A DNA stretch of 64,000 nt from Candidatus Methylomirabilales bacterium (lineage in GTDB: Bacteria > Methylomirabilota > Methylomirabilia > Methylomirabilales > CSP1-5): assembly GCA_046758505.1 (NCBI GenBank), contig JBHIAH010000001.1, positions 83,898-147,897 on the forward strand. Reading direction: 5' to 3'. The position numbers and the translations under genes are program-made. Under the pieces are notes generated by a model. The model saw only the letters and a program-made list of their open reading frames with translations, ran no database searches and was not told the DNA's origin. Positions 26,031-36,064 of this stretch are shown here, piece after piece (within the stretch, counting starts at the first letter, position 1; each line of letters begins with the position of its first letter).

Positions 26031-26041
26031 CGGTCTAATTC

Positions 26042-26137
26042 GTTCATGGTTTATAGTTCATGGTTCATGGTAAAGCGAGGTTCCTGATCTGCAAACTGTC
26101 AGCCATAAACTCTGAACTGTGAACCGTGAACCGGTCA
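26042..26137. repeat. Inverted pair of heptamer arrays (GTTCATG-type / CYGTGAA-type), pyrR-pyrB spacer
   Basis: Left arm GTTCATG GTTTATA GTTCATG GTTCATG (26042-26070). Right arm CCATAAA CTCTGAA CTGTGAA CCGTGAA CCGGTCA (26103-26137). The arms are complementary with T-G wobbles. Confidence 0.85.
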
Positions 26138-26163
26138 CATGGTGATCGATGGGCGGAGCACAG

Positions 26164-27096
26164 ATGGCGCTGAAACGGAAAGACCTGTTGACGATCCGGG
26201 AACTGGAGCCGGAGGAGATCCATCTCGTCCTGGAGACCGCCGACTCGATGAAAGAAATCGCCTCCCGCGAGATCAAGAAGGTCCCCGCGCTCCGGGGGAA
26301 GACCGTGATCAACCTCTTCTACGAGCCGAGCACCCGGACCCGGACCTCTTTCGAGATCGCCGGCAAGTGGCTCAGTGCGGACGTGGTCAATATCGCCACT
26401 TCCGCCTCGTCCGTCACTAAGGGCGAGTCGCTCCTCGATACCGGCAAGACCCTGCAGGCCATGCGCCCGGATGTGGTGGTGATCCGCCACCCGGTCCCGG
26501 GGGCACCCAAGATGCTGGCCGATCGCCTTCCAGCCTCGATCATCAACGCCGGGGACGGGGCCCATGAGCACCCCACTCAGGCCCTCCTCGACCTCTTCAC
26601 CATCCGCGAGCGTCTGGGACGCTTGGACGGACTCAGGGTTGCCATCGTGGGAGACATCAGCCACAGCCGCGTCGCGCGATCCGGCATTCGGGCCATGCGC
26701 AAAGTGGGGATGGAGGTGCGCGTGGCGGGACCGGCCACGCTCCTGCCGCGCTTTTCAGAGCAGCTCGGGGTCCAGGCCACCACCGATGTGGAAACCGCCA
26801 TTGCCGATGCCGATGTCATCATGATGCTTCGGATCCAACGGGAGCGGCAGGGCCCGACCCTGCTCCCCTCGCTTCGCGAGTACAGCCGCCTCTTCGGCCT
26901 CACCGTCGAGCGCTTGAAGAAGGCCAAGGAGGAGGTCCTGATCATGCACCCGGGGCCGATCAACCGGGGGGTAGAGATCGCCCCGGAGGTGGCCGACGGC
27001 CCGTACAGCCTCATTCTCGATCAGGTCACCAACGGGGTGGCCATTCGCATGGGCTTGCTGTACCTCTTGACCGGCGGGCAGGGGAGCGAGCGCTGA
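26164..27096 (+). CDS. pyrB: Aspartate carbamoyltransferase catalytic subunit
   Basis: [26 protein letters not shown] 26164 is preceded by GGAG. Confidence 0.9.
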
Positions 27097-27099
27097 GAT

Positions 27100-27178
27100 G
27101 GTTCAGCGTTCATGGTTGAGGGTTCAGAGTTCAGAGATAGAGATTCTGGCTCTTACCATGAACTGTGAACCGTGAACC
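27100..27178. repeat. Inverted pair of heptamer arrays, pyrB-pyrC spacer
   Basis: Left arm GGTTCAG CGTTCAT GGTTGAG GGTTCAG AGTTCAG. Right arm CCATGAA CTGTGAA CCGTGAA CC. Confidence 0.85.
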
Positions 27179-27192
27179 AATCGGAGAGTGAG

Positions 27193-33448: not shown

Positions 33449-33449
33449 G

Positions 33450-34352
33450 ATGCACTCCCTCCGCCAGATCCAGCCGGACTACTTCCTCCAGCGCTTTGTA
33501 TCGCCCCCCATGGCCTTTCAGCCTGGGCAGTTCGTCATGGTCAAGCCCTCGGGATCGCTCGATCCCTTCCTGCCAAGGGCCTATAGCATCCTGAGAGTCC
33601 AGCGCCACATGACGGGGAGGAGAGGGAAGCGGGAAGACGTGGTGGAGATCCTCTATAAGGTGTTGGGAAAGGGGACCACCGCGCTTTCGCGCCTCAAGCC
33701 CGGCGATCGGGTGGACCTGCTGGGCCCGCTGGGAAATGGCTATCGCGTGCCGCAGGACCTCACCACGGCCCTGCTGGTAGCGGGAGGAATCGGGGTGCCC
33801 CCGGTCGTCGCGCTCGCTGAACGGCTGGCCGGTTCACAGTTCCCGGTTCACAGTTCAGGGCAAGGAAAAGCTGGACTTCGGTCGTCGGTCGTCGGTCGTC
33901 CCAAAGTGGTGGCCTTTATCGGGGGCAAATCGTCGACCGATGTTTTGTGTCTCACCGACCTTCGAAAGGCAGGAGCCGCGCTTCAGGTGGCCACCGAAGA
34001 TGGCAGCCTCGGGCACCAGGGGCTTGTGACCGATCTCCTCGAATCGTATGTGCGGTCATCGGTCAACGGACTTCGGTTAACGGTTTATGCATGCGGTCCT
34101 CACGCGATGCTTCACGCCGTTGCTCGGATCGCCGAGCGATTCCAAATCCCCTGCCAGGTTTCCCTGGAGGCCCACATGGCGTGCGGCTTCGGGGCCTGTA
34201 TGGGGTGCGTTATACCAGTTCAGAGTTCAGAGTTGAGAGTTGAGAGTTCGAGACAAACTATGAACCGTGAACCGTCAACCATGAACCAGCGGAGCTATAA
34301 GTTGTGTTGTAAGGATGGGCCGGCCTTCGACGCCTCGGAGATTGTCTGGTGA
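33450..34352 (+). CDS. pyrK: Dihydroorotate dehydrogenase electron-transfer subunit, with three repeat-encoded insertions
   Basis: FQPGQFVMVKP, RAYSI, VYACGPHAML, and 2Fe-2S Cys cluster CGFGACMGC...CCKDGP. ATG 33450; GTG 33438 is an alternative. Confidence 0.8.
   Translation: MHSLRQIQPDYFLQRFVSPPMAFQPGQFVMVKPSGSLDPFLPRAYSILRVQRHMTGRRGKREDVVEILYKVLGKGTTALSRLKPGDRVDLLGPLGNGYRVPQDLTTALLVAGGIGVPPVVALAERLAGSQFPVHSSGQGKAGLRSSVVGRPKVVAFIGGKSSTDVLCLTDLRKAGAALQVATEDGSLGHQGLVTDLLESYVRSSVNGLRLTVYACGPHAMLHAVARIAERFQIPCQVSLEAHMACGFGACMGCVIPVQSSELRVESSRQTMNREPSTMNQRSYKLCCKDGPAFDASEIVW
33832..33900. repeat. GGTTCAC/AGTTCMS x2 plus CGGTCGT x3 arrays inside pyrK
   Basis: GGTTCAC AGTTCCC GGTTCAC AGTTCAG, an A-rich spacer, then CGGTCGT x3. 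In frame; encodes SQFPVHSSGQGKAGLRSSVVGR. Confidence 0.85.
34053..34087. repeat. CGGTCAT CGGTCAA CGGACTT CGGTTAA CGGTTTA array inside pyrK
   Basis: Five units in register, in frame (RSSVNGLRLTV), just before the conserved YACGP. Confidence 0.7.
34218..34286. repeat. Inverted heptamer arrays inside pyrK, between the Fe-S cysteines
   Basis: Left arm GTTCAGA x2, GTTGAGA x2, GTTCGAG. Right arm TATGAAC CGTGAAC CGTCAAC CATGAAC. Confidence 0.85.
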
Positions 34353-35365
34353 GTGCGGGCCAGAAAAAGCGTTCACGGTTCACGGTTCACGGTTCACGGA
34401 AAAAGGGAAGCCGTCGTCGGTCGTCGGTCACCGGTCGTCGGTCGTCGCTCCGTCGTCCGGACCTGGCCGTAGAGATTGCCGGGATCCGATTGAAAAACCC
34501 GGTGATGACCGCCTCCGGCACCTTCGGGTACGGGACCGAGTTTACCCCCTTCTTCGATCTCAACGCGTTAGGCGCCATCATTGTGAAGACGGTGACCATG
34601 CATCCGCGACTGGGAAACCCACCCCCCCGGATCGTGGAGACGCCGGCGGGGATGCTCAACTCGATTGGGCTCCAGAATGTCGGAATCGACGCCTTTTGCC
34701 AGCAGAAGCTCCCGTTCCTCCGAACGCTGGCCACTCCGCTCGTGGTGAACATCGCGGGAAAGTCAGTCGAGGAGTTCGCCGACCTGGCCAAGCGTCTCTC
34801 GGACGCCGAGGGAGTGGCCGGGGTCGAACTCAATATCTCCTGCCCGAATGTGGCCGGGGGGCTCGATTTCGGCACCGATCCGCGCCTCACGTATGCAGTG
34901 GTGAGGGCGGTCCGGCAAACCACCCCCCTGCCCATCGTCCCCAAGCTCTCTCCGAATGTGACCGATATTACCGTGATCGCCCGGGCCGCCGCCGATGCGG
35001 GGGCGGATGCTCTCTCGCTGATCAACACCATCGTCGGCATGGCCATCGACGTTCGCAGCCGGAAAGCCACACTCCCCGGAGCCACCGGGGGTCTCTCCGG
35101 CCCAGCCATCCGCCCCATCGCGGTCCGAATGGTCTGGGAGGTCGCCCAGGCGGTACAACTCCCCCTCATCGGCATCGGGGGGATCACGACGGGCGAAGAC
35201 GCCGTAGAGTTCCTCCTTGCCGGAGCCAGCGCAGTCCAGGTGGGGACTGCCAATTTCCTCGACCCGCTGGCACCCATGAAGGTCCTGGCAGGCATCGAGG
35301 ATTATCTTGGCCGCCACGGCCTTGACAGCGTGACCGATGTGATCGGGGCCGCCACCCCCCCCTGA
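34349..35365 (+). CDS. pyrD: Dihydroorotate dehydrogenase catalytic subunit (class 1B), repeat-encoded N-terminal extension
   Basis: IRLKNPVMTASGTFGYG and NISCPNV. The only canonical in-frame start upstream of the conserved core is GTG 34349, which overlaps the pyrK TGA. Confidence 0.85.
   Translation: MSAGQKKRSRFTVHGSRKKGSRRRSSVTGRRSSLRRPDLAVEIAGIRLKNPVMTASGTFGYGTEFTPFFDLNALGAIIVKTVTMHPRLGNPPPRIVETPAGMLNSIGLQNVGIDAFCQQKLPFLRTLATPLVVNIAGKSVEEFADLAKRLSDAEGVAGVELNISCPNVAGGLDFGTDPRLTYAVVRAVRQTTPLPIVPKLSPNVTDITVIARAAADAGADALSLINTIVGMAIDVRSRKATLPGATGGLSGPAIRPIAVRMVWEVAQAVQLPLIGIGGITTGEDAVEFLLAGASAVQVGTANFLDPLAPMKVLAGIEDYLGRHGLDSVTDVIGAATPP
34371..34459. repeat. GTTCACG x4 plus CGGTCGT-type x7 arrays at the 5' end of pyrD
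   Basis: 34371-34398 is four perfect units. 34411-34459 is seven units (CCGTCGT CGGTCGT CGGTCAC CGGTCGT CGGTCGT CGCTCCG TCGTCCG). Confidence 0.85.
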
Positions 35366-35501
35366 CCCCCCGACCCGGCGAGGATCCCCAGCACGGAAGA
35401 CGGTGCCAGGTTTCTCCGTTACCTTATCAAAGGGAAAAGGCAGAGGAGAACGAGCGGGCGTTGGCTGGAGCCCGGCCCTGGCACCCCAGAAGGAGGAAAC
35501 C

Positions 35502-35945
35502 ATGATCAGCGGCAAGGCATCTCACGTGGGAGAAGTGATCGTCGCCCGATTTGAGCACGGAGAGGATCTGTTCGCGTCGCTCGAAAAGATTTGCCGCGAA
35601 CAGGATATCAAGAACGGTGTGATCCTGACGGGCTTTGGCTCGATCGATCGTGCCCATTTCCTCGGGGCCAGCTCCCCCGCCTGGCCCGATCTCGAGTTCT
35701 ACCGCGCCCGGCACGAAGAAGGGCTCGAGATCCTGGCGATCTCGGGGGTGATCGCCGATTACGAGGTCCACGCCCACATGGTCCTCTCCAACGAGGACCG
35801 GGCCATGGGCGGGCACATCGAGCCGGGCTGCCGGATCCTGACCCTGTGTGAACTGGTCATCGCGAAGCTCGACGGAATCCGATTGAAGCGGCTCCCCGAT
35901 CCAGAACTGAAGCAGAACTTGCTGCAGGTCGTCGCCTCGGACTAA
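35502..35945 (+). CDS. PPC (DUF296) domain protein
   Basis: AGGAGG RBS. GEVIVARFEHGEDL...ILTGFGS...ISG pattern typical of PPC/DUF296. About 147 aa. Confidence 0.6.
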   Translation: MISGKASHVGEVIVARFEHGEDLFASLEKICREQDIKNGVILTGFGSIDRAHFLGASSPAWPDLEFYRARHEEGLEILAISGVIADYEVHAHMVLSNEDRAMGGHIEPGCRILTLCELVIAKLDGIRLKRLPDPELKQNLLQVVASD

Positions 35946-35949
35946 AGCA

Positions 35950-36064
35950 GTCCACAGTCCAATGTCCGACGTCCAAGGTCCAAGACCGCCGAGAAAAAAC
36001 AGCCCCAGGGACAGGAAGTGTTGAGAGCTGAGAGACTGGACTTTGGACCTTGGACTTTGGACTA
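35950..36064. repeat. Inverted heptamer arrays GTCCAAG-type / TGGACTT-type between convergent PPC gene and uppS
   Basis: Left arm GTCCACA GTCCAAT GTCCGAC GTCCAAG GTCCAAG. Right arm TGGACTT TGGACCT TGGACTT TGGACTA. Includes a 14-bp near-perfect stem (35971-84 with 36042-55). Confidence 0.85.

Follow-up and report, generated by a model that had tools for sequence, protein, structure and literature searches.

Heptanucleotide tandem arrays with hairpin potential, concentrated in the pyrimidine operon of a Candidatus Methylomirabilales bacterium

The DNA studied here is a stretch of 64,000 nucleotides (nt) from a Candidatus Methylomirabilales bacterium, referred to below as the window, and its pyrimidine (pyr) operon contains a dense family of short tandem arrays which keep an exact 7-nt period. 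These arrays belong to the heptanucleotide repeats, that is, the long simple-sequence repeats (LSSRs) and the short tandemly repeated repetitive sequences (STRRs) of other prokaryotes, as they combine an exact 7-nt period with at least three units, a frequency far above chance and several dispersed families. The operon and its surroundings comprise pyrR (25458-26030), pyrB (26149-27096), pyrC (27172-28536), carA (28533-29798), carB (30170-33448), pyrK (33450-34352), pyrD (34349-35365), a PCC-domain gene (35403-35945) and, on the minus strand, uppS (36071-36856), all identified with Pfam. A small open reading frame (ORF) at 29957-30142 is called tautomerase-like from the Pfam Tautomerase matches of a syntenic 61-aa gene in two genomes (L121 and L122). 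The genome bins nearest to the window, with a PyrK identity of 72-77%, are Candidatus Methylomirabilales of the phylum NC10. An earlier interpretation, made from the letters of this DNA and called here the sequence-only reading, was hence right in taking the genome to be non-cyanobacterial.

Periodicity and distribution of the arrays

Tandem Repeats Finder and a lag-k self-match scan (score of at least 10) were applied to the window. The former reported 31 period-7 rows, 19 of which lie between 26042 and 36063. In the scan, lag 7 yielded 21 segments and lag 14 yielded 10, which are the same arrays again, and each of the lags 3-6, 8-13 and 15 yielded 0-1; first-order Markov shuffles contained a mean of 0.1 lag-7 segments. 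After grouping, the operon has about 10 loci and the rest of the window 7, which agrees with the 17 loci, ten of them in the operon, of the sequence-only reading. The unit families found are GGTTCAY/S, CGGTCRY, GTCCAAG/TGGACTT, CAGCnGT/CTGAnnG and ACCAATC, so that all those named earlier are present, and the similarity families D1, D2, D3, D5 and D11 have 8, 6, 6, 4 and 3 copies in the window. The chaining of different families at one locus, also noticed earlier, is seen at 29846-29945, 33829-33900, 34371-34459 and 51366-51532. The operon, taken from pyrR to the uppS spacer (10.6 kb, 16.6% of the window), holds 14 of the 21 arrays (binomial p=4e-7), and the density claimed for it is thereby borne out. 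Arrays were found in 0 of 9 divergent promoter spacers and in 9 of about 50 other spacers, a trend to which no statistical test was applied.

The interval 32563-36170 was recovered in five separate Logan assemblies (SRR29324601, -02, -03, -09 and -11) with 99.94-100% identity and without gaps. An assembly artefact, which the sequence-only reading had considered as an explanation of the arrays, is therefore ruled out by the agreement of five independent short-read assemblies. No copy-number or indel difference was found over this interval among the five assemblies of the sampled population.

As a separate observation, two short-read Logan contigs (L126 and L127) both end exactly at 34400, where a perfect (GTTCACG)4 array is completed. 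The shared end point suggests several genomic copies of the 28-mer, at which de Bruijn assemblies break.

Hairpin pairs in the operon spacers

Many of the arrays are inverted pairs, in which (unit)n is followed by a loop of 8-60 nt and then by (reverse-complement unit)n, an arrangement which had been missed in the sequence-only reading. The unit itself consists of a core of about 6 nt and one freely varying position. RNA folds were scored as z against dinucleotide shuffles, and the six paired or chained loci gave z values from -2.9 to -5.6, five of them at or below -4.2. As judged from these predicted folds, the hairpin arrays can form a cruciform as DNA and a long imperfect hairpin as transcript.

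All arrays are given here on the plus strand. In the spacer between pyrR and pyrB, a hairpin at 26042..26133 is made up of a left arm of GGTTCAT-type units (x4, 26042-26071) and a right arm of TGAACYG (x3.5, 26108-26133), with a predicted stability of -45.3 kcal/mol (z=-5.55; equally stable shuffles 0/200). The spacer between pyrB and pyrC carries a similar hairpin at 27098..27179, with GGTTCAG-type units on the left (x5, 27098-27136) and TGAACYG on the right (x3.4, 27155-27178; -38.7 kcal/mol, z=-4.40). Where the PCC-domain gene and uppS converge, the spacer contains a hairpin at 35948..36063, built from GTCCAMN (x5, 35948-35984) and TGGACTT (x3.9, 36037-36063); it reaches -46.5 kcal/mol (z=-4.29) and has no T-run. 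The spacer between carA and the tautomerase-like ORF holds an array chain at 29846..29945, composed of AGCGGAC (x3, 29846-29867), GATNGCT (x4, 29878-29907) and TCGGTCR (x3, 29925-29945), the fold of which is weakly better than its shuffles (z=-2.46).

Two familiar kinds of operon hairpin were tried and rejected. PyrR attenuators are ruled out, as the sole RF00515 match lies in the leader (25348-25459) and the PyrR loop motif TCCAGAGAGG occurs at chance level only; no array hairpin has an Rfam match. Intrinsic terminators are likewise ruled out, since the array hairpins carry no T-run tail and 0/5 terminator-like sites in 25000-37000 coincide with one of them.

The strength of these folds (z = -4 to -5.6), together with the location of all arrays in transcribed regions (0/9 divergent promoter spacers), brings in the explanation that the arrays are selected RNA hairpins. 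These would punctuate the operon in the manner of repetitive extragenic palindromic (REP) elements and would tune pyr expression through mRNA stabilisation, RNase processing or translational coupling, the structure being conserved and not the sequence. We consider this explanation unlikely, although it is one of the two main alternatives. Many arrays are unpaired (27301, 33829, 34371 and 62395), and the lack of Rfam matches and of terminator-like tails also speaks against it; the related genomes, described below, bear on it from both sides.

Arrays translated in frame inside four pyrimidine enzymes

About nine arrays, whose translation the sequence-only reading had not noticed, lie in frame and free of stop codons inside pyrC, carA, pyrK and pyrD, and they encode peptides with a 7-residue period (e.g. 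GSRFTVH and RSSVVGR). In pyrC, a perfect GTTCAGG array (x4, 27301..27329) is translated as part of an extra segment of about 20 aa, which separates the N-terminal strands from the metal-binding HxH region. This segment is hypervariable in the alignment with the relatives, and several solved dihydroorotases align only from query residue 64.

In carA, the inter-domain linker is encoded by a hairpin pair at 29072..29161, with a left arm of CGAYGACC-type units (29072-29101), a conserved QLDLF loop and a right arm of TCGGTCA (x4.4, 29131-29161). The arms are 30 nt long and 83% complementary (z=-4.22). Most of their mismatches (29072/29132 pair) fall repeatedly in the same unit register, as would fit units with a conserved core and one free base. 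Between its anchors the CarA linker measures 69 aa here against about 45 aa in most of the 51 of 80 metagenome loci in which both anchors were located, with an overall range of 32-90 aa, and it is a generally permissive segment. Seven further loci have lag-7 arrays about 500-545 nt from the carA start, including some of 40-52% GC.

In this connection, carA heptamer arrays of unrelated units were observed in metagenomic lineages of 40-65% GC (L153 8528-8620, L147 1550-1579, L155 710-746 and L200 8516-8539). The L153 and L147 arrays are confirmed to lie in the CarA inter-domain linker; those of L155 and L200 were placed by offset, as their anchors were not found. It may be that heptamer arrays accumulate repeatedly in the CarA linker, also in lineages far outside NC10.

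Three sites are occupied in pyrK. Site 1 (33829..33900) is an in-frame composite of GGTTCAC/AGTTCMS (x4), a purine-rich linker and TCGGTCG (x3.3), encoding SQFPVHSSGQGKAGLRSSVVGR, and its residues 130-148 have a predicted local distance difference test score (pLDDT) below 50 in AlphaFold. Site 3 (34053..34086) is a degenerate CGGTNNN array (x5; 79% to the reference copy) which encodes RSSVNGLRLTV, and large inserts are present there in some relatives (alignment columns 280-345). Site 2 (34217..34288) is a hairpin pair of AGTTSAG (x4.7, 34217-34249), an 8-nt loop and TGAACCG (x4, 34256-34288), translated in frame between the cysteines of the Fe-S domain (z=-2.87). In the TGAACC orientation a TGA stop would recur every 21 nt; the unit at this site reads TCA in the window and in L120, and the resulting Ser is kept in relatives in the motif "EPST".

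When 26 PyrK sequences are aligned, both main sites prove to be indel hot-spots with 0 to about 45 extra residues, and the insert peptides are translations of heptamer arrays (e.g. MNREPSTVN). Distant Methylomirabilota PyrK proteins (about 52% identity; P0097, P0118 and P0120 at site 2) have an insert at neither site, and the solved Lactococcus lactis PyrK aligns in two blocks which skip site 1 and stop before site 2. In one Methylomirabilales PyrK (P0078; L586 1780-1921) the whole site-2 hairpin is gone, and the sequence reads CCG GTT CAC ACC, with one GGTTCAC unit. This single unit is either the starting point of a growing array or what the deletion of a hairpin left behind.

The N-terminal extension of pyrD is encoded by a composite at 34371..34459, made of perfect GTTCACG (x4), a purine-rich linker and CGTCGGT (x5-7), in frame and encoding RSRFTVHGSRKKGSRRRSSVTGRRSS. 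It falls within the first 38 codons of a gene whose GTG start overlaps the pyrK stop and whose Pfam DHO_dh domain begins at residue 39. This N-terminus is hypervariable among the relatives.

The sequence-only reading had pointed out that 21 nt equal seven codons. The 7-residue periods follow from this as stated, and the peptide-level role which it thought conceivable is not demonstrated by anything found here. Under such a role, the Arg/Ser/Gly-rich disordered inserts in PyrC, CarA, PyrK and PyrD would act as linkers or interaction tags, for instance in the assembly of an enzyme complex. Similar inserts do occur in four enzymes of one pathway, they are predicted to be disordered, and they stand at the same positions in all Methylomirabilales sampled. 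Nevertheless, their sequence and length are hypervariable, total loss is possible (site 2 of P0078), the same families are equally common in untranslated operon spacers, and the likeness of the peptides follows trivially from the shared DNA units; a function of the peptides is therefore highly improbable.

Conserved sites and changing units in related genomes

The syntenic pyr operons of five Methylomirabilales genome bins (L120, L121/L122, L128, L130 and the more distant L129) were compared with the window. Core proteins are 85-90% identical among the nearest genomes, whereas the array segments are scrambled. The sites are common to the relatives (two spacers, the pyrC loop, the carA linker, the pyrK sites and the pyrD N-terminus), while the copy number and often the unit differ. 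GGTTCAG is the unit at the pyrC site of the window and of L120. The array there is a perfect (GGGATCA)4 in L130, with a unit differing by one substitution, and is made of GACCCCT in L129. At PyrK site 1, CGGTCGT in the window is replaced by (GGCGGTC)5 in L130. The hairpin between pyrB and pyrC has GGTTCAS arms in the window and L121 and CGGTCRT arms in L128. The spacer between pyrR and pyrB, 133 nt long with its hairpin in the window, is reduced to 36 nt without an array in L121. The pyr-gene arrays of L129 are C-rich.

The lag-7 or Tandem Repeats Finder check which the sequence-only reading had proposed for the genome and its relatives found the period-7 excess in the window, and arrays were counted in the relatives too. 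Pooled over five relatives, the pyr span (48% of the sequence) holds 27/30 arrays (p=1.3e-6), in line with the operon density in the window. This excess is persistence of the hot-spot and not independent replication, because the arrays in the relatives are largely at orthologous sites.

The carA linker shows the same turnover with an additional regularity. Four genomes have the GATGACC/GGTCATC family in both arms, and L121 and L129 have GGAGTGA/CCCCTCA-like units in both; the length is exactly 49 aa after the anchor in 5/6 genomes. The linker folds well in the window, L130, L131 and L132 (z = -3.4 to -5.1) and poorly in L121 (0.5), L129 (0.4) and L128 (-0.9). A conserved stability of this hairpin is thus not consistently supported across the relatives, and structural covariation is therefore not claimed.

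For the selection of RNA hairpins, these comparisons cut both ways. The same spacers hold pairs of different families (GGTTCAS in the window and L121, CGGTCRT in L128), the carA arms change family jointly with the length conserved, and the hot-spot is conserved across the order, all of which would be expected if structure were selected. On the other hand, the carA linker z values in L121, L129 and L128 do not show a stable fold, and the element can be missing altogether, as is seen in the array-free spacer between pyrR and pyrB in L121 and in the absence of the pyrK site-2 hairpin in L586.

The strict 7-bp register, in direct and inverted arrangements, can also be read as a row of DNA binding sites, each 7-bp unit binding a protein dimer cooperatively, or as nucleoid-organising sites. 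A parallel is provided by the 7-bp heptads of pSM19035, which are bound in both orientations by the ribbon-helix-helix protein omega. We regard this as very unlikely: with at least six unrelated families in 64 kb, and families changing at the same site between close relatives, many co-evolving proteins would be needed. Moreover, the arrays avoid promoter regions and no candidate binder was identified.

Sequence shared between arrays

Several arrays at non-orthologous loci are alike beyond their period. The composites of pyrK site 1 and of the pyrD N-terminus (GGTTCAC array, purine-rich linker, CGGTCGT array) are 73% identical over 71 nt, and the GGTTCAS arrays of pyrC and pyrD (27294 and 34364) are 87% identical over 39 nt with a common AAAAAGC flank. 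In the right arms of the two intercistronic hairpins (26113 and 27159), the unit variants follow in the same order, TGAACTG TGAACCG TGAACC (82% over 33 nt). The arrays at 29878 and 44120 have their first three units alike, and the array at 57878..57902 has the unit order GATAGCT GAYTGCT in common with both of them. Further, a nested non-heptamer element, ACTTCGGCGAG...GCTCAGTCGAGCCGTC, is found inside CGGTCRT arrays in pyrK of L120 (10470-10525) and carA of L131 (1610-1685) with identical junctions. It is not present in the window; it encodes ...SVEPLSRAV, and the same peptide occurs in PyrK of P0008 and P0067. These likenesses point to a copying between arrays, probably mostly over short distances, because independent slippage in situ does not predict shared composites, flanks, variant order or nested junctions.

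Such copying could be the work of an enzyme, the arrays being non-autonomous mobile elements whose hairpins are copied nearby or into existing arrays, as in miniature inverted-repeat transposable elements (MITEs), in REPs with their REP-associated tyrosine transposases (RAYTs) or in Rickettsia palindromic elements (RPEs). REPs and bacterial interspersed mosaic elements (BIMEs) are short palindromic repeats of transcribed extragenic spacers, clustered in alternating orientation and linked to RAYT transposases; REPs are species-specific in sequence and conserved in position. RPEs are palindromic in-frame inserts tolerated in housekeeping proteins. REPs and RPEs are not known to have an internal 7-nt periodicity. 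Compared by these general descriptions, the window arrays resemble REP/BIME and RPE elements in behaviour (palindromic, borne in spacers, tolerated in frame) and not in membership.

The composites, flanks and variant order common to non-orthologous loci agree with mobile elements, as do the nested element with identical junctions in two genes of two genomes, the lineage-specific unit pools (the C-rich pyr-gene arrays of L129), the BIME-like clustering and chaining, and the in-frame position of some inserts, as in RPEs. We still find mobility improbable, since neither terminal inverted repeats distinct from the arrays nor a target-site duplication was found, and the empty L586 site keeps one GGTTCAC; no transposase, RAYT or integrase was present in the 20 of about 60 window ORFs scanned against Pfam; and arbitrary heptamer arrays across phyla and viruses argue against one dedicated recognition system.

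Relation to known repeat classes

Membership in several named classes was examined. A strict REP/BIME identity is ruled out, as nine arrays are in coding sequence and the arms are built from 7-nt tandem units, and no RAYT (IS200/IS605-like) was found among the 20 ORFs in the 64 kb of the genome examined. CRISPRs, with repeats of 23-50 nt and unique spacers, are ruled out by contiguous 7-nt units; on both points the sequence-only reading had judged correctly. It had also set MITEs aside. The empty pyrK site 2 of L586 keeps one GGTTCAC without a separate recognisable target-site duplication, and the only inverted repeats are the arms. Phase-variable contingency loci are ruled out by the housekeeping nature of the pyrimidine enzymes and by identical in-frame copy number in five assemblies. 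A strict assignment to the cyanobacterial STRRs was rejected in view of the Methylomirabilales host and of units that never equal CCCCAGT, TTGGTCA or CAACAGT. As to the slippage expected of LSSRs, copy number and length differ between species at orthologous sites, and no indel exists among the five assemblies of the sampled population.

Cyanobacterial STRRs date from about 1990, and their units include CCCCAGT, TTGGTCA and CAACAGT. They are like the present arrays in having several heptamer families per genome, in tandem and in transcribed intergenic regions, and at a Nostocaceae locus (L067) TTGGTCA arrays adjoin a GGTTCAN array. They differ in host and in unit, the nearest pair being CAGCAGT here and CAACAGT there, and in the prominence that hairpins and coding inserts have in NC10.

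The STRRs were the only precedent known to the sequence-only reading; the resemblance holds, and the uniqueness does not, in view of descriptions from Geobacter (PMC2700814), from Xanthomonas and Nostoc (PMC4692102, which also cites the STRR repeats of Calothrix PCC 7601) and from prokaryotes in general (Mrázek 2007, via PMC4679880). According to the summary of Mrázek et al. (2007) by MacGregor (2015, PMC4679880), heptanucleotide repeats are the most abundant long simple-sequence repeats in most prokaryotic genomes, and slippage has been proposed for their excess (Mrázek 2007 via PMC4679880 and PMC4692102). As far as these second-hand accounts of Mrázek, Guo and Shah (2007) go, LSSRs are like the window arrays in their head-to-tail 7-nt units, few copies, frequency far above chance and scatter across phyla, and they are mostly intergenic, with replication slippage proposed. 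The window arrays differ from them in being often inverted pairs, in their concentration in one operon, and in that 9 of about 19 operon arrays are in coding sequence, though 7 is no multiple of 3.

In Geobacter metallireducens, the Gmet_H4 elements, each of four GGACCGG units in tandem, occupy 49 sites, intergenic as well as intragenic (PMC2700814). Gmet_H4 is likewise a GC-rich heptamer with about four units per element, and one unit dominates there against at least six families in this window. In Xanthomonas and Nostoc, GGGAATC/GGGGAYT arrays include inverted pairs and vary in length between close species (PMC4692102). TAACTGA arrays are present in marine Beggiatoaceae, cyanobacteria and Bacteroidetes, and in-ORF cases are limited by stop codons (PMC4679880). 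The likeness to the latter extends to 2-6 copies at many loci, occasional in-ORF copies, an orientation or protein-end position limited by stops, and a cross-phylum spread. They lie mainly a few nt upstream of start codons, with a single unit and only one inverted repeat reported, whereas the window arrays are intercistronic, 3'-terminal or intragenic and often inverted pairs. Literature searches on repeats in Methylomirabilis gave, among their best-ranked results, no paper that names this genus; no search required that term, and an absence is not established by this.

A wide spread was also found directly. Species-representative genomes were scanned for GGTTCANGGTTCANGGTTCA (GGTTCAN x3), giving at least 119 stretches and 850 kb in total. 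The matches listed include Acidobacteriota, Planctomycetota/PVC, Desulfobacterota, Bacteroidota, Cyanobacteria, Lentisphaerae, Chloroflexi, Dialister, purple sulfur bacteria and NC10. These 850 kb contain 314 period-7 arrays, against 5-48 for the lags 5, 6, 8, 9 and 10, and they also hold 112 arrays of unrelated units at distances of more than 500 nt from the query match, along with several inverted pairs. Among the matches listed, 23/119 GGTTCAN arrays are deep inside long ORFs, all in the stop-free orientation. In viral contigs, GGTTCAN gave at least 120 stretches, two permuted cores 57 and 34, and the GGTTCA core at period 8 gave 50; the period-6 and period-8 controls are uninformative or weak, the former being confounded, as GGTTCA repeats can encode Gly-Ser. 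The idea that GGTTCA is a privileged recognition motif across phyla is weakened by the permuted-core arrays in viral contigs and by the many unrelated heptamers in other phyla. Heptamer arrays of many sequences are common, and GGTTCAN is frequent and not unique.

Very long heptamer arrays of 100-400 nt were also observed (L052 6052-6448, Saprospiraceae; L101 5130-5288; L029 3851-3957), e.g. CGGCTGA over 397 nt, and these far exceed any in the NC10 loci.

The class is thus already known from several phyla. What is new here is the NC10 lineage and an instructive locus, and not a categorically new element.

Origin and persistence of the arrays

On balance, these STRR-like heptanucleotide repeats may well be driven by slippage and copied locally, and persist only where they are tolerated. 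We infer slippage, local copying and neutrality from the pattern of sites and units. Slipped-strand mispairing would make the arrays grow, shrink and become homogeneous, so that a mutated unit could replace its neighbours and the unit would change while the 7-nt period and the position stay. Such homogenisation would explain why the fixed sites hold perfect arrays whose units are specific to a lineage. Sequence would also pass from one array to another, mostly over short distances inside the operon and probably by template switching or ectopic gene conversion, and local copying of this kind would account for the shared composites, the variant order, the lineage-specific unit pools, the inverted arms and the operon hot-spot. 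Selection would act as a filter, allowing survival only in transcribed spacers (co-directional or convergent) and, in frame and stop-free, in permissive protein segments such as the pyrC N-terminal loop, the carA linker, the pyrK loops and the pyrD N-terminus. No function would be required, and the hairpins may incidentally affect mRNA folding or stability.

A number of results weigh against this explanation. Copy number does not differ among the five Logan assemblies, and ongoing slippage is thus not demonstrated. A slip of one unit shifts the frame of an essential gene, so that a high rate of slippage should be costly, and yet several lineages have kept perfect arrays of 4-5 units in pyrC, pyrK and pyrD. 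Neither the inverted pairs nor the pyr hot-spot (p ~1e-6) can be explained by slippage alone. The constant length of the carA linker with its joint arm switch looks like pairing selection or arm-to-arm conversion and not like drift, and the 9 array-free divergent promoter spacers fit filtering and an RNA-level role equally.

A further possibility is that the array hairpins form an active genetic system, either a REP/RAYT-like mobile family which a trans-acting enzyme would spread locally and into existing arrays, or selected RNA structures which would partition the pyr mRNA, its coding regions included, with arm-to-arm compensatory evolution. This is improbable; if true, it would explain the order-wide pyr hot-spot, the joint arm switching and the nested element in different genes.

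The locus combines conserved position with sequence turnover, jointly changing arms and in-frame tolerance in four enzymes. As about 10 sites of one essential operon can be traced through six or more genomes, separate tests of slippage, of local copying and of selection on RNA structure become possible. There are practical consequences too. The arrays inflate and scramble protein alignments (PyrK identity is 72-77% against 85-90% for neighbouring proteins) and break short-read contigs, and their masking is advised in annotation and phylogenomics of NC10 and many other phyla.

Operon leader, other arrays and side observations

The operon leader is ordinary context and stands outside the repeat family. 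A sigma-70-like promoter match (25316-25344, plus strand; TTGACA-17-TAAATT, 10/12 matches) is followed directly on its 3' side by a PyrR binding site (25348-25459, plus strand; Rfam RF00515 at 50.6 bits, with a gathering score of 54 and E=9.7e-5), which abuts the pyrR start. From this match, NC10 appears to use a Bacillus-type PyrR attenuator.

Upstream of the operon, a GGTTCAT array (x3, 11602..11634) is located in an ORF (10965-12002) with no Pfam match. Downstream, a GACGTTG-type array (x4.4, 39822..39852) lies at a co-directional spacer between a gene end at 39806 and a gene start at 39846. An array chain 3' of purA (44040..44196) consists of GTTCACG (x2), CAGCNGT (x4.7, 44062-44094) and GCTGNNN (x10, 44125-44196); the latter two pair as a long hairpin (-64.7 kcal/mol, z=-5.38), and an orthologous GTTYACG array follows purA in L121. 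A chain of five arrays (CTGTNRG, CGACGACCG, TGGTGGC, ATCACCA and GAACCGT) occupies 51366..51532 in a co-directional spacer of 320 nt. The two remaining arrays are in convergent spacers, GCTGACT-type (x3.6) at 57878..57902 and CCGACGA (x3.6) at 62395..62419, directly 3' of the stop of a GNAT-domain gene.

The G+C content is about 0.51 at 45851-48000 against 0.59-0.65 elsewhere in the window, and this stretch may be horizontally acquired or compositionally atypical. Within it lie a fused NTP-transferase/CDP-alcohol phosphatidyltransferase gene (45851-47176) and the first part of a PfkB kinase gene; in L128, a gene with the same two domains is found 3' of purA. Two tRNA genes were identified at 50587-50659 and 55290-55364 (Rfam RF00005), and about 700 nt separate the first of them from the array chain downstream of it at 51366-51532.

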